From: a virus
Taxonomy: Duplodnaviria; Heunggongvirae; Uroviricota; Caudoviricetes
Virus record (IMG/VR): IMGVR_UViG_3300011831_000028
Direction: 5' to 3' (one strand)
Length of the DNA stretch: 36,868 nucleotides
Part shown: positions 9,859 to 36,868 of the stretch, piece by piece
Position numbering within the stretch: position 1 is the first letter of the stretch
Layout of the letters: each line of letters begins with the position of its first letter
The notes under the pieces: generated by a model
Told to the model about the DNA's origin: nothing
Database searches by the model: none
What the model saw: only the letters and a program-made list of their open reading frames with translations
Position numbers and translations under genes: made by a program

Positions 9859-10425
9859 TCAGGGGGATTCATTGCTCTTATTTGCCGGAAATTTTCTATA
9901 AATTGTGGAAACACCCACATCAAAAATCAGTGCAATACGCTGTCTTGATTCTCCGGCCTCGAGTAAACGCCCAATCTGTGCCCACTGTTCGGTGGTCAAC
10001 TTAGGACGGCGTCCACCTACTCTGCCTTTGGCACGAGCTGCAGCCAGCCCTGCCCTGGTACGTTCAACTATCAGTTCGCGTTCCATTTCAGCCAGGGCAC
10101 CCATGACATGAAAAAAGAAACGGCCCATTGGGGTGCTGGTATCAATACTGTCAGTCAGGCTTCGGAAATTCACGCCTTGCTGACGCAACTCTTCTATCAG
10201 CGTAACAAGATGCCGCATACTGCGCCCCAACCTGTCCAGCTTCCAGACAACCAGCGTGTCTCCTGCCGATAGTGTCCTGAGCAGTTTTTTCAACCCTGGT
10301 CTGTCGGACTTAGTGCCACTGATTTTATCCTCAAAAATTCGCTCACATCCCGCGCAGTTCAGTGCATTACGTTGCAAATCGGTGTTCTGGTCATTTGTTG
10401 ACACGCGTACATAGCCAATAAGCAT
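9859..10425 (-). CDS. serine DNA invertase (Pin/Gin/Hin/Cin family)
   Basis: MLIGYVRVSTNDQNTDLQRNAL.., catalytic Ser region and C-terminal HTH; start placed at Met16 of the track ORF by alignment to recalled Pin. Confidence 0.9.
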   Translation of the reverse strand: MLIGYVRVSTNDQNTDLQRNALNCAGCERIFEDKISGTKSDRPGLKKLLRTLSAGDTLVVWKLDRLGRSMRHLVTLIEELRQQGVNFRSLTDSIDTSTPMGRFFFHVMGALAEMERELIVERTRAGLAAARAKGRVGGRRPKLTTEQWAQIGRLLEAGESRQRIALIFDVGVSTIYRKFPANKSNESP

Positions 10426-10480
10426 GAGCATCCCCCTGAATAAAAACCGGGGATGATGCCAGTTAACCATTATCTCTGCA

Positions 10481-10506
10481 TTTTCATAAACGTTGGTTTG
10501 GGAGAA
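10481..10506. repeat. gix-like recombination site (left boundary of invertible segment)
   Basis: Reverse complement ttctcccaaaccaacgtttatgaaaa shares the first 14 nt (ttctcccaaaccaa) with the site at 12167-12192; half-sites fit TTnTCnnAAACC. Confidence 0.65.
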
Positions 10507-11079
10507 GGCTCTGCATTACCTGTTGGTGTCCCTGTTCCGTGGCCTTCAGCCACTCCGCCAACAGGCTGGCTGAAATGCAATGGTGCGGCTTTTTCTGCTG
10601 AAGAATACCCGGAACTGGCAAAGGCTTACCCGACAAATAAATTGCCAGATTTACGTGGTGAGTTTATTCGTGGCTGGGATGGCGGGCGAGGGATTGATGG
10701 GGGGCGCATACTTCTCAGTTGTCAGAGTTTTGCTTTCCAGGACCATGCGCACGCTCTGCCAACCGGAGTGGGTAATCCGTCATACCAGATGGAAAGCGAT
10801 ATCTATACGGTTTTCAACGATGAACCAGAAATACCCAGTGCGGTCCTGAGTCCATCGTCGTCAGGAACATCATGGGACGCAACCAGTAGGGCAGACAAGG
10901 TAATCCTTTATCGCAAGGACCTTTCACCAACAGGTAATAACAACGAAATAGCGCCCGGATTACCACCATTCAGGACTTACAGGGCATCGACCTCAGACGG
11001 TGTTACTCATCCGTCCGTGTACGCATCTGAAACCCGTCCGCGCAACATTGCATTTAACTACATCGTGAGGGCTGCATAA
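10495..11079 (+). CDS. silent alternative tail-fibre C-terminal cassette (Sv'-like), promoterless in this orientation
   Basis: Frame reads NVGLGEGSALPVGVPVPWPSATPPTGWLKCNGAAFSAEEYPELAKAYP.. (tail-collar-type fibre tip) directly after the crossover site; opposite strand to H. Confidence 0.65.
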   Translation, partial: GLGEGSALPVGVPVPWPSATPPTGWLKCNGAAFSAEEYPELAKAYPTNKLPDLRGEFIRGWDGGRGIDGGRILLSCQSFAFQDHAHALPTGVGNPSYQMESDIYTVFNDEPEIPSAVLSPSSSGTSWDATSRADKVILYRKDLSPTGNNNEIAPGLPPFRTYRASTSDGVTHPSVYASETRPRNIAFNYIVRAA

Positions 11080-11684
11080 TGGCGAAAGCAAAATTAAACA
11101 GTGCGTTTATTGCCACCGTGGCAGGAGAAATCACTGTGTACAACTACCGGGGCGACACCCGCGAATACATATCCTCATCGCTTGAGTATCTGCCTGTGGG
11201 GGTGGGTATTCCTGCCAATTCCTGTACCGATGCGCCCGGCACACATAAGGCTGGTTATGCAATCTGCCGTTCTGCAGATTTTAACTCATGGGAATATGTG
11301 CCAGACCATCGCGGTGAAATTGTCTATGGCATCGAAACGGGGGAATCAAAAGAAATTACTGTGCCGGGGGATTACCCTGAAAATACGACCACTTTTGCCC
11401 CATTAACGCCATACGATAAATGGGATGGTGAGAAATGGGTAACAGATACCGAGGCACAGCATAGCGCCGCAGTAGATGCAGCAGAAGTACAGCGCCAGTC
11501 TCTGATTGATGCTGCTATGGCTTCCATCAGTCTGATTCAGCTGAAATTGCAGGCCGGACGTAAACTGACGCAGGCAGAAACAACCCGCCTTAACGCTGTG
11601 CTGGATTACATTGACGCGGTGACGGCAATAGATACCAGCACCGCGCCTGATATTATTTGGCCTGTATTCCCTGAGACTGATTAA
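11079..11684 (+). CDS. tail fibre assembly chaperone (Tfa/U'-like) for the silent cassette
   Basis: 201-aa ORF with conserved Tfa C-terminus ..RLNAVLDYIDAVTAIDTSTAPDIIWPVFPETD; start overlaps the Sv' stop. Confidence 0.8.
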   Translation: MAKAKLNSAFIATVAGEITVYNYRGDTREYISSSLEYLPVGVGIPANSCTDAPGTHKAGYAICRSADFNSWEYVPDHRGEIVYGIETGESKEITVPGDYPENTTTFAPLTPYDKWDGEKWVTDTEAQHSAAVDAAEVQRQSLIDAAMASISLIQLKLQAGRKLTQAETTRLNAVLDYIDAVTAIDTSTAPDIIWPVFPETD

Positions 11685-24565: not shown

Positions 24566-25975
24566 TTACTCATCTACTCTGATTTTTTGTTTTTTATTAT
24601 TTTGAGTTAAGACATTTATGGTAATAGATGTATACGGATGAAAGTCAGGCACTATACTTTTAACCTCTCCATTTTCAAGAAAATGATGTGCTATTGAAGG
24701 AAATAAATCAGGATCTACAGGATATTTAGCATTAGGATTATGATACATATTTAAACCTTCTGCCCATGTTTCTGTAATATCGCCTTCTTTCACTTCAAAA
24801 CTAAATGCTGCTGGATATAATGCCTCTGGGTCATGATCATGGCAGTAACCACTCCTAAATAATCTAAGGTCACTTCTTCCAAAACCAGCCAGTTTTCCCA
24901 TCCGATTAAACTTCGATATAGTACCACTATTAGAACTAAGGACGGCCGAAATATTTTCAGACTCATCCAAGAAGAAAAAGCCTGAAGGAATTTCCTTTTT
25001 CTCAAATTGATGCGATATAATTTTCTTAGTTGCTAAACTGTAACATCCATCTTCAGATTTAACATGCTCATAGCGAATACCATAAAGATACTGCCAAAGT
25101 GCACTATGGGACCAAATCATAGAGTTTGGTTCATGAAAATCAGCAATTGCGAAAATTAAAGGATTCCCCTTAACATGTTCTAGATCCCAGTATCGAGTTT
25201 TCTTTTTCAGTTTAGAATAGAGAGAACTTCCAAATTTAATCGGCATATAATTCTCTATTTTCTCTAGCAATTCTTCCTTACTTTTAGGTTCAGATAGCAT
25301 TTCAGATGATTGATTAATATCATTCCCTGTTGGATTAACCGTTACAGCTTCAATGCAAATAGTATTACCATACTTACGTGCCACATAATCAGGGGCATTA
25401 AACTGCCTATCTAGCCAAAAGTGTTCCTCTCGTAAATATGCGAAAAGATATAACTCCCATAGCCGGGCATCAAAACCTGTTGTCTGAAACTGCTCTATAA
25501 AATTCCCGTCGACATCCTCAAAATGATTCATCATTTCCTTGATTATCCCTGTTGCAGGCGACCAGTTCGCGTATTTACCAAATAATGAAAAATGATGATG
25601 AAGTTTATCTGGTGTAACTATAGGTGTGAATAAATCCATTGCTTTATAAGTTTCATCACCTTGTGGAAATACTTTTACGTTTAATTTAGTATGCTTCCGC
25701 ATTAATTTCTTTAGTTTTGCTCGTGCAGAATTCATTTCTGAAACACTAGTAAATAGGTCAATACATCTATATCTCCCACTTAAGTCTCTTGCTAAAACAA
25801 TACCGCTATAATCTTCATCGATTTGATCCAATAATAGTGCCCCTAGCAGGAACTCTCTCGGACTACAGTACCACTCAAACTCATAGCCTAAAAGTTCAGT
25901 ATTTGGCATTCTGGTCCAATCAACAAAAGCATTAAACCTCTCTTTACTCATTTTTTTTATATCAAGAAAAGACAT
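24566..25975 (-). CDS. hypothetical 469-aa protein, A+T-rich accessory gene between portal gene and cos
   Basis: Uninterrupted ORF with GAGG Shine-Dalgarno 8 nt upstream of ATG; no family recognised by eye; convergent with Q. Confidence 0.6.
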   Translation of the reverse strand: MSFLDIKKMSKERFNAFVDWTRMPNTELLGYEFEWYCSPREFLLGALLLDQIDEDYSGIVLARDLSGRYRCIDLFTSVSEMNSARAKLKKLMRKHTKLNVKVFPQGDETYKAMDLFTPIVTPDKLHHHFSLFGKYANWSPATGIIKEMMNHFEDVDGNFIEQFQTTGFDARLWELYLFAYLREEHFWLDRQFNAPDYVARKYGNTICIEAVTVNPTGNDINQSSEMLSEPKSKEELLEKIENYMPIKFGSSLYSKLKKKTRYWDLEHVKGNPLIFAIADFHEPNSMIWSHSALWQYLYGIRYEHVKSEDGCYSLATKKIISHQFEKKEIPSGFFFLDESENISAVLSSNSGTISKFNRMGKLAGFGRSDLRLFRSGYCHDHDPEALYPAAFSFEVKEGDITETWAEGLNMYHNPNAKYPVDPDLFPSIAHHFLENGEVKSIVPDFHPYTSITINVLTQNNKKQKIRVDE

Positions 25976-26296: not shown

Positions 26297-26530
26297 TTAA
26301 TGCAGCCAGCTGTCGTCTTCCCACACCTTCTGCATAATTTTCATCACTTGTTTTCTTTCTTCGTCCAGTTGCAGTCCGGTTAGTTCCACACCGTTAGAGC
26401 TACCTTTGCGAATGCGAATTACCGTTTTGGGATACAGGGGGCGCAGATTGCGGTAAAGCTCGGATTCAAGGGCGTCCAGGGTAGACTGGCTAATCTTCTG
26501 CTCTTTATCGATCATTATTTCAATGCGCAT
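26297..26530 (-). CDS. DinI-like protein (possible Tum-like SOS module component)
   Basis: MRIEIMIDKEQ..LDALESELYRNLRPLYP..VIRIRKGSSNGVELTG.. resembles recalled DinI (MRIEVTIAK..ALAGELSRRIQ..VSVRYAAANNLSVIG); GAGGTG SD upstream of Met25 of the track ORF. Confidence 0.65.
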   Translation of the reverse strand: MRIEIMIDKEQKISQSTLDALESELYRNLRPLYPKTVIRIRKGSSNGVELTGLQLDEERKQVMKIMQKVWEDDSWLH

Positions 26531-26540
26531 AAAAGTCACC

Positions 26541-26729
26541 TCAGCTGATGACATCCATTGAGCGGTTGTATTCGTGGGTTCTGATTTTTGCCATGAGTTC
26601 ATCAGTCAATTCAGAAACCCACTGCAGAGCCAGCCCCTTCTCTTCATCACTACACTCACTAGCCGCTACAAGCTTAAGAAAAAAATCAATGCGCTGGAGC
26701 TTCAAAGACTCCAAAAAATAGTCCTGCAT
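26541..26729 (-). CDS. small hypothetical protein (62 aa) co-transcribed with the dinI-like gene
   Basis: AGGAGG 4 nt upstream of ATG at 26729; LexA box immediately upstream. Confidence 0.5.
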   Translation of the reverse strand: MQDYFLESLKLQRIDFFLKLVAASECSDEEKGLALQWVSELTDELMAKIRTHEYNRSMDVIS

Positions 26730-26771
26730 CTTTCCTCCTATGACACCACACGCAATACTGTACGCATAACC

Positions 26772-26790
26772 ACTGTTTATATTTACAGTA
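26772..26790. promoter_or_regulatory. LexA (SOS) box
   Basis: actgtttatatttacagta = CTGT-N8-ACAG with AT-rich spacer, 43-61 bp upstream of the small ORF start. Confidence 0.6.
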
Positions 26791-26882
26791 TATAATAATC
26801 TTACTGATGTAAAACGTTTTTTTACGTTCATCAGCCTGATATGCCTGGTATTATAAAGAGCACGAATTGTTAACCCGCGTAA

Positions 26883-29297
26883 TTAATACAGGTTCCGCCA
26901 CTGATCATCTTCTTGCAAACGCTGGTTCCGATAGAAGATACGCAGGCCTGCTCCTGACGGAATACTGCCTCCGCGAAGGAGTAAATCGACCTCTTTCTCG
27001 CTGCCATCAAATCCTCTGGACTTCAGCTCATACACGAGCTGCAGTCGCTGATGGTCTGTAATTCGCTGTTTGTAGTCTTTACGCCGTTTCGGTTTCACCA
27101 GGCGTAACCTTGCAGCCAGTTCCCGGCGCTCTTTTTTGTTCATACTGTGCAGGTAATCGTGCAACTCCTTGTCATCCATGCTGGTAATGTCCGTTCTGGG
27201 GTCCCCATCAGCTGATTTATCTTTCTCCTGTTGGTTCAAATTTTCAGCAAGGGGACAGTTATTGCCACGAGTCCAAGGGGCGCAAGCGCCCTGGTCGGCT
27301 GCCGCCTCCTGAACGTCAACGACCTTACGAACCATTTTCCATTTCATTGCATGAGTGCAGATCTTGCCCTGTACAATGGGTGACCAGATGCCATAAATAC
27401 GAATACCGTGATCGCCATAAGCGGTCGGCTCTTCGTTAATTTCATAAGCTGTTCTGATAAGGTGATATTTGCGGGGAACCAGTACGCCGCCCTGCTTCAT
27501 GATGTAGGTGGCAAAACAGCCAGCATCAGCGGCAGCCAGGATGGCATCAAGGCGCGGGTCATCCAGTACCGGCGCACCTGCTTTTTTGTCACCCTGTTGC
27601 CTTGCCGCCTGACCAGCCAGCAAGCGAAGTTCACGGTACGCCTGACGCCCCGGAATACCAAAGAAGCGGAACTGCTGAACACGATGCAGAGACGCCCAGG
27701 CATTAACGTATTCGGCGTTATCACGCAGGGATTTACCCGTTTCCTTGCTGATCTCGCCAGCCAGACCACGTCCGTCAATGTTCTTACTGATGTATTTCGC
27801 GATGTAGCTTGTCGGCGTTCCTTTGCGCGGGTTTATCAGCTCAGACTTAAAGCGTGGACCCGTGTTATTGCCCAGTTCCTCGCGGTCTTCACGGATGGCA
27901 AACTTACGCAACAATGCAGTAATGGCGCGGCGGTCTTTTTTGCGCATGAAACACATGAGATGCCAGTGCACAGTACCGTCATGGTGCGGCTCAGCCACCC
28001 GCACGCCATACCAGCGCAACCCGGCTTTGTGCATAGCCTTACGAAATGCAGCAAACATGCCGACCAGATAATCGCTGCTTTGTCTTACCGTCGCATTTGT
28101 CCAGGTTGGGTTTGGTCTGCCGTTATTGAGCGTAGAATGGAAACGTGACGGACAGGTAATGGTGTAGAAAACGGCGCAGTCACCACGCATTTCCGCGATA
28201 AGCTCCAGACCTTTAACACAGGCCATCATCTCATTGCGGCGGTGCGCCGGGTTGCTGCTGCTGGCGTTTACCACATCTTCCATATCCAGCGTGTCGCCGT
28301 CTTCGTTCACCAGTTCATGAGAACGGAAAAACTCCAGCGACTTGCGGCGCTGCTCACGTTTATGCGTCACTGCTTCATAGCTGACATAGGGAGATGCTTT
28401 TTTGCTGACCAGGCAGACAGCACGCAACTGCTCTTCCCGCCATTCGCAACGTATCTTCCACAATTTTCGATACCACCAGTCGGCGCAAAGCATACGTGCC
28501 AGCGAACCCGGTATGAGTTCATAGGGCACGGGTTTGCGGCGGTTTCTTTTCCGACGGAGTTTCTCAAACGCAGGCGGGATAACATCCAGACGCAGGGTTT
28601 CCGCTGCCACCTTTTCCCATGTCTTGCGGATTTCTTCTGGCTTAACGTCATCGGAGGCATACAAATCACCACAAGCGGCCTCAAGACACATGCTCATATG
28701 CGCTGCTACCAAGGTGGACAGGCGTTTTACCTGATCCTGACTCATTTCAGGCAGGATCAGCAGGCCCTCAAGCCTTTGATGGCTTGCCATAAAACGGAAA
28801 GAAGCGGATAGCTGACTGTCGCGTACATACTCCAGTCGCTCCAGACATGACTTAATCGTCTCACGCAAATAGCGGGAATAAGCCTTTGGCCTGCCCAGGC
28901 TGCTGAAGTATTCGATACGTTGCATCAGCGGCTTGCTGATGTGGGTGGGCTGGGCGCTGACGTCCGCCAGAATGACCATGTCCGGGTTAAAACGCTGCTG
29001 CTCATGCGCCAGCTTTGCCCGACTAATGAGATTATCCTGCTCCATTTCGCGCTGGACAGGATCACGGGATTCATTAAAGAAATAACGCTCCCAGACCTGC
29101 TCACTCAGTGCATCGCGGCGCAGCTGTTCCTGCTCGTTATCGGCAGCGTACAGAGTGATCATGTTTGAAAGTGCAGACTCCGGCGCAACTTCCGCCGGGT
29201 CCAGATAAGGGTTAATGGCCTTTTTCGGGCCGTTCCATGAAAATGCTGCAGCGGCCTCGTTAAAGCCGCTAGAGTTGCTCATATCATCATGACTCAT
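26883..29297 (-). CDS. A: replication initiation endonuclease gpA-like (rolling-circle)
   Basis: 804-aa ORF in the P2/186 A position between early genes and cos. Confidence 0.85.
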
Positions 29298-30675: not shown

Positions 30676-31017
30676 TTAATTCGGCATGGTTAGCCGTCTG
30701 GGAAATAAGCTCACCACTGCACGAAAATGATTCATTGCTTTAATCAGCTCCCGCTTTTCGTCAGTGGTCAGCTCATTAATGCTGATGCTATGACGTTCAG
30801 CTGGAATTTTTGCCATAAAGAATATGGCAGCCAGTGCCCGTTTATTTTGTTCATTATTGATATCCCGTGGATCACGCATATCTTTAATAAACCGCTCAAG
30901 CTCTGACTCAATATTCAGGCCAAAAACTTTCGCTCTTAATTCCGCAATATGATTAAGTCCATTCAGGCGTTCACCGGGGCTTAATGGAACAGTCGCCGCA
31001 GCGCCTTCAATAGCCAT
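30676..31017 (-). CDS. hypothetical early protein (113 aa; start uncertain)
   Basis: ORF in early operon between cII and A. Confidence 0.45.
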   Translation of the reverse strand: MAIEGAAATVPLSPGERLNGLNHIAELRAKVFGLNIESELERFIKDMRDPRDINNEQNKRALAAIFFMAKIPAERHSISINELTTDEKRELIKAMNHFRAVVSLFPRRLTMPN

Positions 31018-31211
31018 TGGTTCCCCCGTTTTTTCGTTGATAGTTCTGCCAGCAATTCATCTTGTGAACGGCACGGATGCCAGCGTTTACCATCCTCACC
31101 CATGATCCAGCCGTGACCGTAGTGCATTGCCGGACTTTGTTTTACCAGCAGCGATGCAAATGATGGTTCTTTCGTCAGCATAAGCACCTCACAGCAAACC
31201 GAATGAAGCAC
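30981..31211 (-). CDS. hypothetical early protein (start uncertain; position of 186 fil/dhr-type genes)
   Basis: Small ORF immediately downstream of cII. Confidence 0.4.
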   Translation of the reverse strand: MLHSVCCEVLMLTKEPSFASLLVKQSPAMHYGHGWIMGEDGKRWHPCRSQDELLAELSTKKRGNQWLLKALRRLFH

Positions 31212-31704
31212 CGAGGCCAGTCACGGTATCAACTGCACTCGCCATCGCAGGATTAGCCTGTAAACGGGCCTGCAATGAAACAGCAGCCAGCGCCATCAGT
31301 CGTGTAACAGAGTTAATGCTGCTGATCGCATCACGACGGCCTGCACTGGTTTTTACATCGCCAGAAACCGCACCTGCCGCGACACGCCCTATCTCTGCAG
31401 TTGCACTCATGACGTAATGCGGCAGTTTCTCTTTTGCCACCTCATTAATCGGTACACATGGCAGGCAGTGAATCTGTGCCAGAAAGCCATCTACCAGCGT
31501 TGAATCTTCAGTCAGATCGGTAAGCAGCCAGATTTCTGGCGCATTGAGCTGATGCGGTTGATCTGGGTTGAGTTTGTTTCGCAGAGTCTGGACATTCATT
31601 CCTGCACGTTCTGCCAGCTTCGCCATATTGTGACGAAGTGCAAAAGCTCTACAGGCTTCATCAAAATGCGGGTGTTTGGAAACTTGGTAATCAAACATGG
31701 TCAA
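31189..31704 (-). CDS. cII: phage 186-type regulatory protein CII
   Basis: 171 aa, N-terminal HTH-like [27 protein letters not shown]; size and position match 186 CII. Confidence 0.75.
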
Positions 31705-31730
31705 TGCCTCTGATGTATTTCAGAATCGAA

Positions 31731-31952
31731 CTAATTAAGGTTTAGATTGCATTCTGAAAGCGCATCAACGGTCATGGCTGCTATGTTGATCATCACTTTT
31801 TCGCGTTTTTTATCTTTCCGCAGACGGTGACGGATAAGACGTCCATCAGCCAACATGTCATTGATAGTATCGATGGATAGCCCTGTCAGCTCGCTATAAC
31901 GTTCAATAGTCACATGAGGCGTGGTAAGAGTGATTGAAATGTTAGGTTTCAT
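31731..31952 (-). CDS. Apl/Cox-like excisionase and switch regulator
   Basis: 73-aa HTH-like protein, first gene of the rightward early operon, divergent from cI. Confidence 0.65.
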
Positions 31953-32077
31953 GATGCAACATTCCTCGTTTAATGTTGATTAATCAGGACGAATACGGAT
32001 CGTTTGTATTTTGTGAACATCATAAACATACGATCGCATAATGAAATCGTCAAGACAAAAGTTCACTTGGAGTGACC
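31953..32077. promoter_or_regulatory. cI/apl divergent promoter-operator region
   Basis: 125-bp intergenic with palindrome tgattaatca (31975-31984), repeated atacg(g)atcg (31993-32002 and 32029-32037) and inverted gtgaac/gttcac (32013-32018 and 32061-32066). Confidence 0.5.
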
Positions 32078-32647
32078 ATGAATTTGGAGAAAGGCGGACG
32101 AGGCGCTATAGAGCGCATGGTAGAAGCATATGGCTTCAAGACTCGACAGGCGTTGTGCGATCACTTAGGAATCTCTAAAAGTACTCTCGCCACACGCTAT
32201 ATGCGTGACTCATTCCCTGCTGAATGGGTAATCCAGTGCGCACTTGAAACGGGCGCCTCGCTTAACTGGCTCACGACCGGACATGGTTCAAAGCAAACTT
32301 CAGGTAATACAAATACTATGGAAGTCGTTAAATATGTATTATCTGATGGAACCTTGCAGGAAGATGGTTTTTATATTTTCGATAAAGAATTTCTACCATC
32401 TACGCTCAAAAATCCGTTTGTAATCACCGATAACAATTCCGTTTTTATTTGCGATAAAGAGTTTAACGATATTCGTGACGGCAAATGGGTAATAAGTATT
32501 GATGCCGAAGTAACAATCCGCGATATCACTCGTTTACCTGGTGGAAGAATCTTAGTTGAAGGTGGAAATAGGGCTTTCGAATGTAAAAAAGAAGAAATCG
32601 AAATTATTGGAAAAATTATAAGCATAACAGTTAAGTACTTTGAGTAA
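32078..32647 (+). CDS. cI: immunity repressor CI (186-type, N-terminal HTH plus C-terminal oligomerisation domain)
   Basis: MNLEKGGRGAIERMVEAYGFKTRQALCDHLGISKSTLATRYMRD..; GGAG 6 nt upstream of ATG at 32078 (track ORF begins at GTG 32072). Confidence 0.8.
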   Translation: MNLEKGGRGAIERMVEAYGFKTRQALCDHLGISKSTLATRYMRDSFPAEWVIQCALETGASLNWLTTGHGSKQTSGNTNTMEVVKYVLSDGTLQEDGFYIFDKEFLPSTLKNPFVITDNNSVFICDKEFNDIRDGKWVISIDAEVTIRDITRLPGGRILVEGGNRAFECKKEEIEIIGKIISITVKYFE

Positions 32648-32697
32648 TATAGGAATGTTTTTATGCTTGGTAAAGCATTTGTTGTGGTGTAAAAAAT

Positions 32698-33621
32698 ATG
32701 TCAACTCAAAAATTAAAATTTAGCCATATCAAAAACGATCTGAAAGCAATAGTTATGCAGAATCGTGGAGGGCAAAAAGTTATTGAGCGTATACTCCTAG
32801 CCTATGGCTTCAAGTCACGACAGGCATTATGTAATCATCTAGGTATTTCCCAAAGTACTATGGCCAACAGATATGCACGTAATACCTTTCCTGCAGATTG
32901 GGTTGTTATATGTTCCATAGAAACAGGAGCATCAATTGAATGGTTAGTTCTTGGTTCAGATACTGCTCCTTCATCAGAGCAATATTCTGAAAAACATGCC
33001 GTTAATGGCCTTTGCAATGAAGTATACATTCCCACTATAAAGTTCGATAATGAAAAACTCATGAATTTTAACCGAGGGGGTAAGGCAACAATAGAACGAA
33101 TTGTCGAGGCTTACGGTTACAAAACGCGCCAAGCATTAGCTGATCACCTAGGTATTTCAAAAAGCACATTAGCCACACGATACATGCGTGACATTTTTCC
33201 TGCAGACTGGGCTTTGCAGTGTGCAATAGAAACGGGCCATTCTATTGAATGGATTTCATTTGGTACAGGAGAAATGAAAAACGCAAAAAATAAAGATACT
33301 TTAACATTAGTGAAAAAAGTATTAATCAATGGCAAGTTAATAAATGATGGCTCATATTTATTTGACCCATGCTTTCTACCTTCCAATTTAAAAAATGCAT
33401 TCGTAGTATCTACCGAAGACTCTGAATTAATATGTGAAATGGGTTTTAAAGATGTACATGATGGTAAGTGGCTAGTAAATATTGATGGAGAGAATTCATT
33501 TAGAATGATAACTCGACTACCTAAAGGACGAGTTTATATTTCATCCCAAAATCACTCTTTTGAATGTTCGCTTACAGATATTGAGTTTATTGCAAAAGTT
33601 ATTATAAGTTGTTTACATTAA
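32698..33621 (+). CDS. CI-paralogue with two tandem CI-type HTH domains and a CI-like C-terminal domain
   Basis: Residues ~23-88 and ~117-182 each align to the CI N-terminal domain; second copy has recognition helix SKSTLATRYMRD identical to CI; C-terminal ~100 aa aligns to the CI C-terminal domain. Confidence 0.7.
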   Translation: MSTQKLKFSHIKNDLKAIVMQNRGGQKVIERILLAYGFKSRQALCNHLGISQSTMANRYARNTFPADWVVICSIETGASIEWLVLGSDTAPSSEQYSEKHAVNGLCNEVYIPTIKFDNEKLMNFNRGGKATIERIVEAYGYKTRQALADHLGISKSTLATRYMRDIFPADWALQCAIETGHSIEWISFGTGEMKNAKNKDTLTLVKKVLINGKLINDGSYLFDPCFLPSNLKNAFVVSTEDSELICEMGFKDVHDGKWLVNIDGENSFRMITRLPKGRVYISSQNHSFECSLTDIEFIAKVIISCLH

Positions 33622-33646
33622 GTAAATTTTTCATGGAGACTTCATA

Positions 33647-35164
33647 GTGAAATGTGGTGATTGTAATTGGAACTGGGATGAAGAAACTACCTTTATATTA
33701 GACGACGAAGAGGAAATTCTTTCCAAAGACAAACTTAATCGGAGACACTATGCAGAATATCTATATTTTTATCTTAAGGAAAAGGGGCAAAAGAACAACA
33801 CGGTAATCAACCTTAATGCAGAATGGGGAGCTGGTAAAAGTTTTTTCATAAAGAGATTTTATAACTCAATAAAAGATGCACACCCATGCGTTTACATTGA
33901 TGCCTGGAAGCAAGACTTTTCTGATGATGCATTTTTAACCCTTTTTTCTTCTTTGTCACAACAATTGCAAACATATGCAGGAAAACTTGATGCTCGATTG
34001 ATACAAAGCGGCCATGCTATCGGACGCTTTACAAAAGGTGTTCTACCTGAAATCATATCTGGCCTAATCAAGACTTATGCAGGAGTAGATAACGTAGGTG
34101 ATATAGCCAAAGAAGCCTCATTAATAATGCTGAAGGAACACCAGGAAAAACTGAAGAGCATTAAGGTATTAAAAAAAGAACTAACGTTATGGTCTAGGTT
34201 GGCATATGAAAATAGTTTTTCATGTCCTATATTTATCTTTATAGATGAATTAGACAGATGCAGGCCAGATTATGCAATTTCTCTTTTAGAGATTGTTAAA
34301 CATATATTCGATATTAAAAATTTTGTCTTTATTATTGCTACTGACACAGATCAATTACAACATTCAATCAAGAATGTTTACGGTAATGATTTTTCCGCAA
34401 ATGACTATTTAGGCCGTTTTTTTCATAGAAGATTTACTTTAAAACAACCTGAACTTAAAGATTTAATTAATGGTGTTGTTGGTGATTATATTGGTACCGA
34501 TTTTGAAAATATCACATCAAAAACATACCCACTAACAGCAACATTAGAAGACTTTTCAATAAATATTTCCAACGTATTTGAAGCATTTGGGTTAAATCTA
34601 AGAGACTCAATCCGAAATACTGAAAGGTTAATAGACATTCTTAAATCTGATTTAGTCAAAAAGAAAGTAGATTATATTTTTATAATTTCGCTAATGATTA
34701 TATATGATAAGGATCGTCAAATTATAGATGGACTAATTGGTCGAAGAAATGCAGCACAACGTTTCACTGATTCGATAAAGCAAAGCTCCAATTTAAAAGG
34801 TGTTTCTCAAGCCATCCTTGAATTAAATCTTGATACAAATCAGCAAAGAATAGGTGTCAATTATATCTATAGAACGGCGAGCAGTAGATTATTCATCTCA
34901 CAGATCGAGCCCAAAATAAATTTAACATTAATAAATTACTTAGATGTTGCATTGTATTTTATTAATAATATAAACATGCTTAAATCAAGTATAAAAAACA
35001 ATGGGCAAAATTCACTAATGATTATATCTCAACAAGGCCCTATTGATGGTGATACAGCTATAAAGTATTTGCAAGGAGCCCTTATAGAGAATGGTCTGAA
35101 TACATCTTTTTATGCCTTACATAATTACATTGAATTAATTGAACTGGCCACATCATTTGATTAA
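33647..35164 (+). CDS. KAP-family P-loop NTPase
   Basis: Walker A NLNAEWGAGKSFF and Walker B IFIFIDELDRCRPDYAISLLE, both hallmark KAP signatures; GTG start with GGAG upstream. Confidence 0.7.
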   Translation: MKCGDCNWNWDEETTFILDDEEEILSKDKLNRRHYAEYLYFYLKEKGQKNNTVINLNAEWGAGKSFFIKRFYNSIKDAHPCVYIDAWKQDFSDDAFLTLFSSLSQQLQTYAGKLDARLIQSGHAIGRFTKGVLPEIISGLIKTYAGVDNVGDIAKEASLIMLKEHQEKLKSIKVLKKELTLWSRLAYENSFSCPIFIFIDELDRCRPDYAISLLEIVKHIFDIKNFVFIIATDTDQLQHSIKNVYGNDFSANDYLGRFFHRRFTLKQPELKDLINGVVGDYIGTDFENITSKTYPLTATLEDFSINISNVFEAFGLNLRDSIRNTERLIDILKSDLVKKKVDYIFIISLMIIYDKDRQIIDGLIGRRNAAQRFTDSIKQSSNLKGVSQAILELNLDTNQQRIGVNYIYRTASSRLFISQIEPKINLTLINYLDVALYFINNINMLKSSIKNNGQNSLMIISQQGPIDGDTAIKYLQGALIENGLNTSFYALHNYIELIELATSFD

Positions 35165-35225
35165 AAGCATTGTTTGAATAAACTAAACCATACATTGACC
35201 ACTGGTCAAACATACAGTTAAATTT

Positions 35226-35250
35226 AGCCCTCTGATATGAGGGCTTTATT
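35226..35250 (+). terminator. hairpin plus T-rich tract immediately upstream of the int start codon
   Basis: agccctc tgatat gagggct ttatt; the 3' arm contains the GAGGG Shine-Dalgarno of int. Confidence 0.45.
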
Positions 35251-36303
35251 ATGGCAGTACGAAAACTCACCACAGGAAAATGGCTTTGCGAATGTTACCC
35301 CGCCGGACGTAGTGGGCGTCGTGTGCGTAAACAATTCGCCACCAAAGGCGAAGCACTGGCTTTTGAGCGTCACACGATGGAAGAAACCGAAGCAAAGCCC
35401 TGGCTGGGTGAATCAGTGGATCGTCGAACACTGAAAGACGTGGTTGAGCTATGGTTCAAACTACATGGTAAATCTCTGACTGCTGGGCAGCATGTCTATG
35501 ACAAATTGCTGCTGATGGTTGACGCTCTGGGCAATCCCCTTGCAACTGATCTAACCTCTAAAATGTTTGCCCACTATCGAGATAAACGCCTGACAGGTGA
35601 GATCTACTTCAGTGAGAAATGGAAGAAAGGAGCAAGCCCGGTCACCATTAACCTGGAGCAAAGCTATCTAAGTAGTGTTTTTAGCGAACTATCCCGCCTG
35701 GGCGAATGGTCGTATCCGAACCCACTGGAGAACATGCGAAAATTCACCATCGCAGAAAAAGAGATGGCATGGCTTACCCATGAGCAGATTGTTGAATTAC
35801 TAGCTGATTGCAAACGTCAGGACCCAATTCTGGCACTGGTAGTTAAGATATGCTTAAGCACAGGCGCACGCTGGCGAGAAGCCGTAAATCTTACCCGCTC
35901 ACAGGTGACCAAATACCGAATTACCTTTGTAAGAACGAAGGGGAAGAAAAACAGAAGCATCCCTATCAGTAAAGAGCTTTACGAAGAGATCATGGCGCTT
36001 GATGGGTTCAATTTCTTCACAGACTGCTATTTTCAATTTTTATCCGTGATGGAAAAAACGTCTATCGTGCTCCCTCGCGGTCAACTCACACACGTTCTGC
36101 GCCATACGTTTGCGGCGCACTTCATGATGTCGGGTGGAAACATTCTGGCTTTACAAAAAATTCTCGGGCACCACGATATAAAAATGACTATGCGTTACGC
36201 ACATCTGGCACCGGATCATCTGGAAACGGCGCTCCGTTTCAATCCTCTGGCAACGCTGCCAAGTGGCGACAAAGTGGCGGCAGCGGTTGGCATTACCCCG
36301 TAA
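35251..36303 (+). CDS. int: tyrosine integrase (P2/186 Int family)
   Basis: 350 aa with C-terminal ..HVLRHTFAAHFM..GHHDIKMTMRYAHL (R..H..R..Y catalytic pattern). Confidence 0.9.
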   Translation: MAVRKLTTGKWLCECYPAGRSGRRVRKQFATKGEALAFERHTMEETEAKPWLGESVDRRTLKDVVELWFKLHGKSLTAGQHVYDKLLLMVDALGNPLATDLTSKMFAHYRDKRLTGEIYFSEKWKKGASPVTINLEQSYLSSVFSELSRLGEWSYPNPLENMRKFTIAEKEMAWLTHEQIVELLADCKRQDPILALVVKICLSTGARWREAVNLTRSQVTKYRITFVRTKGKKNRSIPISKELYEEIMALDGFNFFTDCYFQFLSVMEKTSIVLPRGQLTHVLRHTFAAHFMMSGGNILALQKILGHHDIKMTMRYAHLAPDHLETALRFNPLATLPSGDKVAAAVGITP

Positions 36304-36377
36304 TAACCACCACTGACCACCAACCCAACTTATTGTTTTTACTCTAAGTTATTGTTTTCATTAACCCGTTTACATAA

Positions 36378-36399
36378 ATGGGTTTTTTGTTGCCTGAAA
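36378..36399. repeat. attL core, 22-bp direct repeat
   Basis: Identical to 2479-2500; preceded by a phage-borne hairpin arm (aacccgttt 36363-36371) so a hairpin plus T-run is present at this junction too. Confidence 0.75.
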
Positions 36400-36868
36400 A
36401 TTACCACTCTTTAAATCAATGGCTTATACCACCACTTTCCCTTACATGGCGACATCGTCGCGGTAGAACGTTTTATGTGGCTGTAACAGGTAATTAAAAA
36501 CCTGCCAGCGGTGCGTCAGTATCAGTAAGCTAATTCTTCCTGCATTCCTTTCGGATTCTGGAACAAGCCATTCAATATCGAACTCATCTATTTTCACCTC
36601 GAACGCCAGACAGATTGTATTTAGGTTAAAAAATATCAGGTCATTGTCCTAAAAAGCCTCTGCTTGTCATAAACATGATCTGCTTTGAACTTCCATACTA
36701 GTGGCGGGCATACGCTGGAGCGGATAGAAACACGTTATGGAGGGAACAGGAATGAAGTTTTCACGGGCAGTAATGGCAATTGAACTCATCGTACAGGTCT
36801 TAGGGCATGCAGCAAAAAATCGCTCTATTGAGCTGAAGAGCGAGGCCAGTAAACATGTACCATTCTGA

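Follow-up and report, generated by a model that had tools for sequence, protein, structure and literature searches.

A two-head 186-type CI repressor encoded behind another cI gene in an Escherichia coli prophage

The CI wheel of coliphage 186 is the textbook alternative to the lambda switch. To our knowledge, mechanistic work on this wheel has all assumed one helix-turn-helix (HTH) head per subunit, and 186 CI is said, from the work of Dodd and Egan in 1996 and of Shearwin in 2002, to read two types of operator with that one head. In the wheel model, the C-terminal domain (CTD) of 186 CI builds a 14-mer (PMC3675496). Here we describe ORF307, a gene of a complete 186/P2-like prophage of Escherichia coli contained in the stretch of DNA analyzed (the window; 36,868 nucleotides; IMG/VR record IMGVR_UViG_3300011831_000028). 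ORF307 encodes an intact 186-type CI repressor with an extra N-terminal HTH head, and it lies not at the switch of the prophage but behind another, single-head cI gene, referred to below as the resident cI.

A survey of the regulatory regions of P2-like phages reported cI-apl spacers of 88 to 125 nucleotides and differences in CI length, with no mention of a second HTH domain (PMC3448106). The slot between cI and int is known to be variable and to hold defense-type genes in Vibrio K139-like phages (PMC9122126), and an "integrase-primase" hotspot holds 8% of the defense systems of P2 phages (PMC13586616). Natural immunity hybrids of P2-like phages (e.g., P2 Hy dis) are described as products of recombination around the switch between phages that are otherwise very similar (PMC1904268). 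Searches of the literature, including searches on Klebsiella phage 4LV2017 and on the name and accession of the Pfam family, returned no description of a two-head CI subfamily. What is new here is thus a two-head branch of the 186 CI family that is common yet undescribed in the literature searched, together with a displaced copy of such a gene behind another cI.

Two heads and a CI C-terminal domain in one polypeptide

Pfam matched two stretches of ORF307 to Phage_CI_repr (PF07022; E = 1.1e-55) and residues 207 to 302 to Phage_CI_C (PF16452; E = 1.5e-25). The limits of the two heads, N1 and N2 (Table 1), were set with a hidden Markov model (HMM) built from the three N-terminal domains (NTDs) of the window, namely, those of the resident CI, N1, and N2. 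An AlphaFold2 monomer model built on 43 homologues contained three confident domains (mean predicted local distance difference test score, pLDDT, of 78.8; predicted template modeling score, pTM, of 0.40), and both heads folded as 5-helix domains with a pLDDT of about 80 to 90; at this pTM no arrangement between the domains was confident, and the packing of N1 against N2 was not readable. The best match of the model in the PDB was phage 186 CI (2FJR), and the ORF307 CTD superimposed on the 186 CI CTD (2FKD) with a template modeling score of 0.91 and a root mean square deviation of 1.3 Å in Foldseek, LexA structures being distant fold matches only. Peptidase_S24 had no Pfam match in ORF307 at an E value of ≤0.01, and the resident CI scored 17.1 bits against that family, under the cutoff of 23.3. 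All 25 invariant positions of the family are retained in ORF307. Pfam, the HMM, and AlphaFold2 therefore agreed on two CI-type HTH domains and a CI CTD in one polypeptide, as the initial annotation of the window had proposed. Both ORF307 and the resident CI carry the label "phage repressor protein CI" in enteropathogenic E. coli (EPEC) E2348/69.

In local alignments, the N1-containing and N2-containing halves of ORF307 were 58% identical over 77 residues, and the resident CI was 55% identical to residues 121 to 302 of ORF307. The resident NTD shared 71% identity with N2 and 62% with N1. The 14-residue HTH stretch GISKSTLATRYMRD is the same in the resident CI and in N2, where it forms part of a helix 2-turn-helix 3 region in which 22 of 23 residues are shared, and N1 has GISQSTMANRYARN instead. 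The alignment thus confirmed that one head has kept the HTH stretch of the resident CI and that the other carries a different one; both N-terminal repeats are homologous to the CI HTH, and the identity of the helix is no artifact.

The disordered linker between the heads ends at Met121 (33058-33060) in MNFNRGG, which aligns with the MNLEKGG start of single-head CIs, and this alignment is consistent with two-head CIs having arisen when an N1 module was fused to a complete cI. A 186-aa protein annotated in two contigs (P0131) starts exactly at Met121 of ORF307. No Shine-Dalgarno sequence was evident for this codon, which may nevertheless serve as an internal start.

Spread of the two-head subfamily and age of its heads

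Of the top 120 clusters formed at 90% identity, no fewer than 46 were of two-head CIs (290 to 330 aa), with hosts in E. coli, Salmonella, Klebsiella, Enterobacter, Citrobacter, Kosakonia, and Edwardsiella. When 1.84 billion representatives at 50% identity were searched exhaustively, the whole CI family gave no more than 244 matches, and two heads were present in 20 of the best 150 of these, some of them only 26 to 35% identical to ORF307. Distant proteins in this identity range (P0157, P0166, P0184, P0226, and P0285) have different helices, e.g., GVSAANVSNWVQRN and GISTATISTWIRRD, so that the two-head design is probably present, or arose, well outside the Enterobacteriaceae group studied here. 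Among 40 deposited phage records listed, about twenty had a full-length, single-piece match to ORF307, and they fell into two sequence groups, one of 4LV2017 with the Kp48xx series and one of the ST437/ST11/ST340/ST258 "phi" series. When the N1 region was used as a DNA query, 13 of 30 rows sampled at even intervals matched from the first base, which extrapolates to a two-head-type cI in some 200 of the 5426 complete E. coli genomes. A scan of a contig set with one genome per species returned mostly single-head CIs and two more two-head loci. At one of the two, in Dryocola sp. BD586 (L004, 6001-6690; P0066), a two-head CI is truncated to 229 aa, with both HTHs and no CTD; it may have decayed or may be a "heads only" protein that occurs naturally.

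In all eight of the other lineages that were opened, the two-head CI was the sole CI gene and stood divergent from apl at the pR/pL switch, with an apl-cI spacer of 88 bp (124 bp in L090) and with variable cargo downstream, followed by int. The cargo consisted of unknown proteins of 349 and 201 aa in Klebsiella phage 4LV2017 (Elveevirus; ARB15674.1), GmrSD_N plus HEPN in Salmonella (L083), three unknown proteins in one E. coli lineage (L084/85), a 660-aa AAA_15 protein in a second (L087), AAA_15 plus DUF4276 in a third (L090/91), and unknown genes in Enterobacter (L088/89); the record of Klebsiella phage ST11-OXA245phi3.1 (L101) stops at the cI gene, and the remaining lineage was that of RIT714 (L003). 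Among all the loci fetched, a motif scan detected two CI genes in one locus in the window lineage only. On these comparisons, the two-head architecture is widespread and normally serves as the phage's own primary repressor. To call it unusual for temperate-phage repressors, as had been done at first, was an overstatement, given how common it is in the family, in deposited phages, and, by extrapolation, in E. coli genomes; the rare feature is the displaced, promoterless position behind another cI and not the architecture of the protein.

The heads had also been described as a tandem duplication. Two homologous heads are indeed present, but the event was neither recent nor local. The resident NTD and N2 are just 64% identical in DNA and use the same codon at 17 of 47 identical residues, and synonymous sites between head copies are saturated. 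Within one chain, N1 and N2 were never more than 69% identical in the 47 two-head proteins compared, 36 of the 47 N1 domains formed a pure clade, and the N2 domains intermixed with the heads of single-head CIs. Since synonymous sites are saturated and few codons are shared, the duplication of the head is old. Codon usage rules out that the resident cI and N2 were copied from each other recently, whether by duplication or by gene conversion. From the same figures and the separate N1 clade, the shared helix is maintained by selection on the protein and not by recent copying.

Moreover, the helix says little about specificity. The stretch GISKSTLATRYMRD occurred exactly in 24, and GVSKSTMATRYMRD in 33, of the 74 single-head CI clusters retrieved. 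Phages of the window class, of Brenneria (L012/L013), and of the L100 type (L100/L022) combine near-identical helices with unrelated-looking switch spacers, and the repeated elements of the Brenneria and L100-type spacers (GATYGCTTTTGGAATC) differ from those of the window class. This ruled out the rule of "same helix, same operator." Since the helix is found family-wide and with dissimilar operators, identity with the resident CI does not predict a common operator, and the initial prediction that N2 shares the specificity of the resident repressor does not follow from it.

The helix of N1 belongs to a type of its own, GISQSTMANRYARD (the QSTMANRYARD type), found in 29 of 47 N1 domains. ORF307 N1 differs from the subfamily majority at 1 of 14 positions and groups with other N1 domains at 84 to 88% identity. 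This conserved helix type argues that N1 functions in reading DNA and that many two-head phages share its target. A 20-bp-phased motif, WTCACAWWWCGGAKAWT, was derived from six spacers of the 88-bp class, in which two units lie 20 bp apart and adjoin the cI start. The single-head loci L009 and L024 share this O1/O2 layout of 88 bp, and their CIs start "MST..." like the two-head proteins; for this reason, the candidate in which N1 reads the non-TCAC half of the motif was dropped. The spacer can thus be explained without N1, which may have a target outside it or may lack DNA binding altogether. It seems to us rather unlikely that N1 is an independently evolving second reading head that gives one 186-type wheel a second class of DNA sites. 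Were that so, distal looping sites or operators of other phages could make up this second class, every two-head CI would be a "bi-specific" immunity protein by design, a 14-mer would carry 28 HTH domains, and three HTH specificities would be produced together from the lysogenic operon of the window, stacked as a layer of immunity beside the KAP NTPase encoded downstream of ORF307.

Displacement of ORF307 and its proposed role

ORF307 begins 50 bp 3' of the resident cI. The left flank of the locus (31001-32688) is 93% identical in DNA to a prophage of E. coli CUVM3 (L092), in which a lone 189-aa cI is followed by a 63-aa open reading frame (ORF) and int, with no such cargo. By blastn and base-by-base comparison, this similarity stops near 32688, inside the small ORF. 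Similarity to two-head cI genes starts near 32690-32692, 6 to 8 bp before the ATG of ORF307; positions 32690-33210 match the 4LV2017 cI from -8 of its ATG at 81%, and the operator region upstream is unmatched. On the right, similarity to all compared prophages is back at 35185-35190, about 62 bp before int. From these left and right limits, the insert comprises 32689-35188 and carries a promoterless two-head cI and a gene for a KAP-family NTPase. The locus of 3.6 kb is present in 17 of 5426 complete E. coli genomes at 99.4 to 100% identity, including EPEC E2348/69, where the prophage adjoins rcdA/ybjJ.

The origin of the insert is suggested by contig L100, which is collinear with positions 33103-36402 (mid-N2, CTD, KAP, and int) at 73% DNA identity. 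L100 has the native order CI-KAP-int; its sole repressor is a 186-aa single-head CI, 71% identical to residues 122 to 305 of ORF307, and its KAP protein is 69% identical to that of the window. The two heads of ORF307 (residues 1 to 195) are closest to the 4LV2017 group (78%), and N2 is 76% identical to the NTD of the L100 CI. The CTD is 73% identical to that of L100, 49% to that of the resident CI, and 41% to that of 4LV2017. These comparisons show a mosaic protein, with heads closest to the 4LV2017 group and a CTD closest to L100. Because CI-KAP-int is the native order in L100, ORF307 is a displaced former primary repressor whose phage carried KAP in the cI-int slot. A later illegitimate join put a switch and a single-head cI from a different 186-like phage before a block of two-head cI, KAP, and int, and, as the join falls 6 to 8 bp upstream of its ATG, ORF307 lost its own operators and promoters.

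We tentatively favor the reading that ORF307, made from the lysogenic transcript that runs from cI to int, provides a second immunity specificity, and we give this nearly an even chance. ORF307 would be cotranscribed with the resident cI, would assemble into its own oligomers, and would repress the early promoter of incoming 186-like phages of the ancestral type (the 4LV2017/P0002/P0005 group), so that the lysogen would gain a second immunity specificity beside the KAP NTPase. The annotated record of phage 186 places cI and int in one lysogenic operon with pL and pE as its promoters. A consensus scan of the + strand from the stop of the resident cI (32647) to the start of ORF307 found no terminator-like site and no promoter-like site above background, the level at which promoter-like matches occurred over the whole region. 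By analogy with the 186 operon, and since no terminator-like site intervenes, ORF307 and KAP should be made in the lysogen. Every copy of ORF307 was full length, both in the 17 complete E. coli genomes that have the locus and in another 15 contigs. Its N2 14-mer is that of 4LV2017, P0002, and P0005, and its N1 14-mer is off by one position; identities to these three proteins are 87 to 88% for N1 and 82 to 84% for N2. Between the 125-bp spacer of the resident switch and the 88-bp spacer of the two-head class, alignable similarity is lost just past the apl start. Since both HTH stretches are identical or near-identical to those of phages whose switches are unlike that of the resident, a second specificity is the simplest reading, and the two-head-type cI prophages extrapolated above for E. 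coli would be candidate targets. The suggestion in the initial annotation that the protein recognizes the operators of a heteroimmune phage is accordingly the one best supported by the comparative data, because close relatives of ORF307 are the sole repressors of 186-like phages with different switches. ORF307 may also bind the resident operators through N2.

Several observations weigh against this role. Identity of the helix is no guarantee of the same operator, and, with a CTD only 41% identical to that of 4LV2017, spacing or cooperativity on the operators of that group could differ. No operator for N1 or for the whole of ORF307 was definable from the spacers, and nothing in the 88-bp spacer is specific to two-head phages through N1. 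The FL/FR motif TTCAC-N5-GTGAA, taken from the annotated 186 record, gave two matches in the whole window, no excess over chance, with one plausible site, at 32062-32076; no further FL/FR-like distal copies were found, and a general scan for inverted repeats gave noise. One synonymous and one nonsynonymous variable codon are too few for purifying selection or a ratio of nonsynonymous to synonymous substitution rates (dN/dS) since displacement to be read from them. Finally, the cluster of ORF307 includes the annotated 186-aa form and a 251-aa protein, the latter labeled "partial" at its source and possibly cut by a contig end.

The best-surviving alternative, although we consider it unlikely, is that ORF307 is a neutral hitchhiker that was captured with the KAP block, is weakly expressed or not expressed, and has not yet decayed. 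The illegitimate join just before the ATG, which truncated a small ORF, would suit such a history, as would the lack of a promoter of its own, the want of a selection signal in the changes just named, and the shorter annotated forms; moreover, all copies are 99.1 to 100% identical, so the arrangement is young. However, no complete genome or contig examined has a broken copy of the ORF, the invariant family residues are all retained, a position in the lysogenic operon makes expression hard to avoid, and the lineage has spread, the exact KAP sequence being found on 275 contigs. We consider it improbable that ORF307 modulates the resident switch, by binding pR/pL or flanking operators through N2 or by coassembling with the resident CI through the CTDs, with tighter repression or a changed induction threshold as the effect; this corresponds to the earlier idea that the protein might bridge or compete at the prophage operators. 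The shared HTH stretch with its 22 of 23 residues, an N2-to-CTD linker similar in length to that of the resident, and the 49% identity of the CTDs are all compatible with it, and a second CI could matter for induction if the DinI-like gene 3' of a LexA box (see below) is read as a Tum-type antirepressor. Prophages of the L092 type nevertheless run the same switch (93%) on a single cI alone, the helix is family-wide and occurs with dissimilar operators, nothing points to hetero-oligomers, and N1 would be left without an assigned role.

Very doubtful, finally, is a two-gene defense module in which ORF307 controls or triggers the KAP NTPase as its dedicated regulator or sensor: the linkage is strict (the genes lie 25 bp apart in 17 of 17 genomes and in 15 of 15 contigs) and CI-KAP adjacency recurs in L100 at about 70% identity, but the L100 CI is the only repressor of its phage, so that adjacency follows from the position of the slot, seven other two-head lineages have unrelated cargo (GmrSD plus HEPN, AAA_15, AAA_15 plus DUF4276, or unknown genes), ORF307 is without a match among the PADLOC models, and the model matched by the KAP protein, PDC-S20, is in our reading a class of single-gene candidates. 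One KAP-domain system that consists of a single gene has also been reported to be active alone (PMC13586616). In the lineages compared, no pairing of an HTH regulator with KAP independent of the phage's repressor function was found. The association of dual-HTH proteins with KAP NTPases that the initial annotation proposed to look for elsewhere is thus positional: seven other two-head lineages have different cargo, the record of the eighth, L101, stopping at cI, and a KAP homologue (69%) follows a single-head primary CI in L100.

Other features of the prophage and relation to described systems

Table 1. Positions of ORF307, its domains, and neighboring features in the window
Feature	Position	Strand	Basis or remark
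ORF307, two-head 186-type CI repressor (N1, linker, N2, CTD)	32698..33621	+	ORF of 307 aa; Pfam, 2x PF07022 and PF16452
N1 HTH domain, residues 24-90	32767..32967	+	NTD HMM built here
N1 HTH stretch GISQSTMANRYARN	32842-32883	+	sequence comparison
Disordered linker, residues 91-126	32968..33075	+	pLDDT 30-38 for residues 89-123
N2 HTH domain, residues 127-193	33076..33276	+	NTD HMM built here
N2 HTH stretch GISKSTLATRYMRD	33151-33192	+	sequence comparison
CI C-terminal (oligomerization) domain, residues 207-302	33316..33603	+	PF16452, E=1.5e-25
gpA	26883-29297	-	
cII	31189-31704	-	
apl	31731-31952	-	
apl-cI switch spacer, 125 bp class	31953..32077		
pR-like promoter TTGACG-17-TATGTT	32053-32025	-	analogy with phage 186
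Symmetric site GTTCAC-TTGGA-GTGACC	32061-32077		analogy with annotated CI sites of phage 186
Resident single-head cI	32072..32647	+	191 aa from GTG; RefSeq ATG at 32078, 189 aa; HTH stretch at 32168-32209
Left recombination junction with 9-codon stump MLGKAFVVV*	32662..32692 (stump, 32662-32691)	+	remnant of the small ORF after cI in L092
KAP-family P-loop NTPase	33647..35164	+	PF07693, E=1e-45
Right edge of variable slot	about 35189		blastn limits
int	35251-36303	+	Pfam Int_N and Phage_integrase

The KAP NTPase matched the PADLOC models PDC-S20 (8e-78) and PifA (1e-16) and, more weakly, QatA, and it is a candidate anti-phage, abortive-infection gene. In complete E. coli genomes, the gene was found only with ORF307, in the same 17 genomes. 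A terminator-like hairpin, AGCCCTC-TGATAT-GAGGGCT with a T-rich run (35226-35245, + strand), ends 5 bp before the int start codon; L092 and 4LV2017 have a different hairpin-like sequence at the equivalent place. Between gpA and cII lie dam and several small early genes. On the other side of gpA, between it and the portal gene, the classical tin/old defense hotspot of P2 holds a gene for a 469-aa protein (24566-25975, - strand) that had no Pfam match but matched PD-T7-1 of PADLOC over nearly the full length (E=1.3e-196); the content of E2348/69 differs there. A DinI-like protein is encoded within 26297-26831 (- strand) as a 101-aa ORF, for which RefSeq has a 77-aa protein and a 62-aa upstream ORF, and a perfect LexA box, CTGTTTATATTTACAG, lies upstream at 26773-26788. 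Together these look like an SOS-controlled antirepressor module of the 186 Tum type, so that the prophage is probably SOS inducible. A serine invertase gene (Resolvase plus HTH_7; 9859-10470, - strand) adjoins an ORF with a tail-collar domain and a tail-fiber assembly gene on the opposite strand, and 9859-11684 is probably an invertible tail-fiber (host-range) segment.

Compared with the CI of coliphage 186, ORF307 has the same HTH fold and LexA-like, noncleaving CTD. It differs in having a second HTH and a linker of ~35 residues in front, in being only 28% identical (structural alignment), and in lying downstream of another cI and not at the switch. The CI of 4LV2017 and the two-head CIs P0002, P0003, and P0005 of E. 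coli and Salmonella prophages share the order N1-linker-N2-CTD with ORF307 (62% identity overall and about 78% in the heads). Repressors of the 4LV2017 type are sole repressors with an 88-bp switch directly upstream, whereas ORF307 is severed from such a switch and has a CTD of a different lineage (41%, versus 73% to L100). This subfamily makes it possible to test directly how the geometry of the wheel, the spacing of operators, and the number of heads interact, and its annotation calls for some caution, since a "phage repressor protein CI" beside another cI is not necessarily a duplicate.

With regard to the cI-int hotspot of P2-related phages, the slot holds KAP here and GmrSD/HEPN, AAA_15, or other genes in relatives; a second complete immunity repressor as cargo was found only here, among the loci examined and those of PMC9122126 and PMC13586616. 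Repressor genes may therefore be carried as cargo in the manner of defense genes, widening superinfection immunity. The natural hybrids of P2-like phages swap one repressor/operator set for another, whereas here a switch and a cI were added before the old repressor gene, and the lysogenic operon of the window is thus a naturally occurring one with two complete repressor genes.

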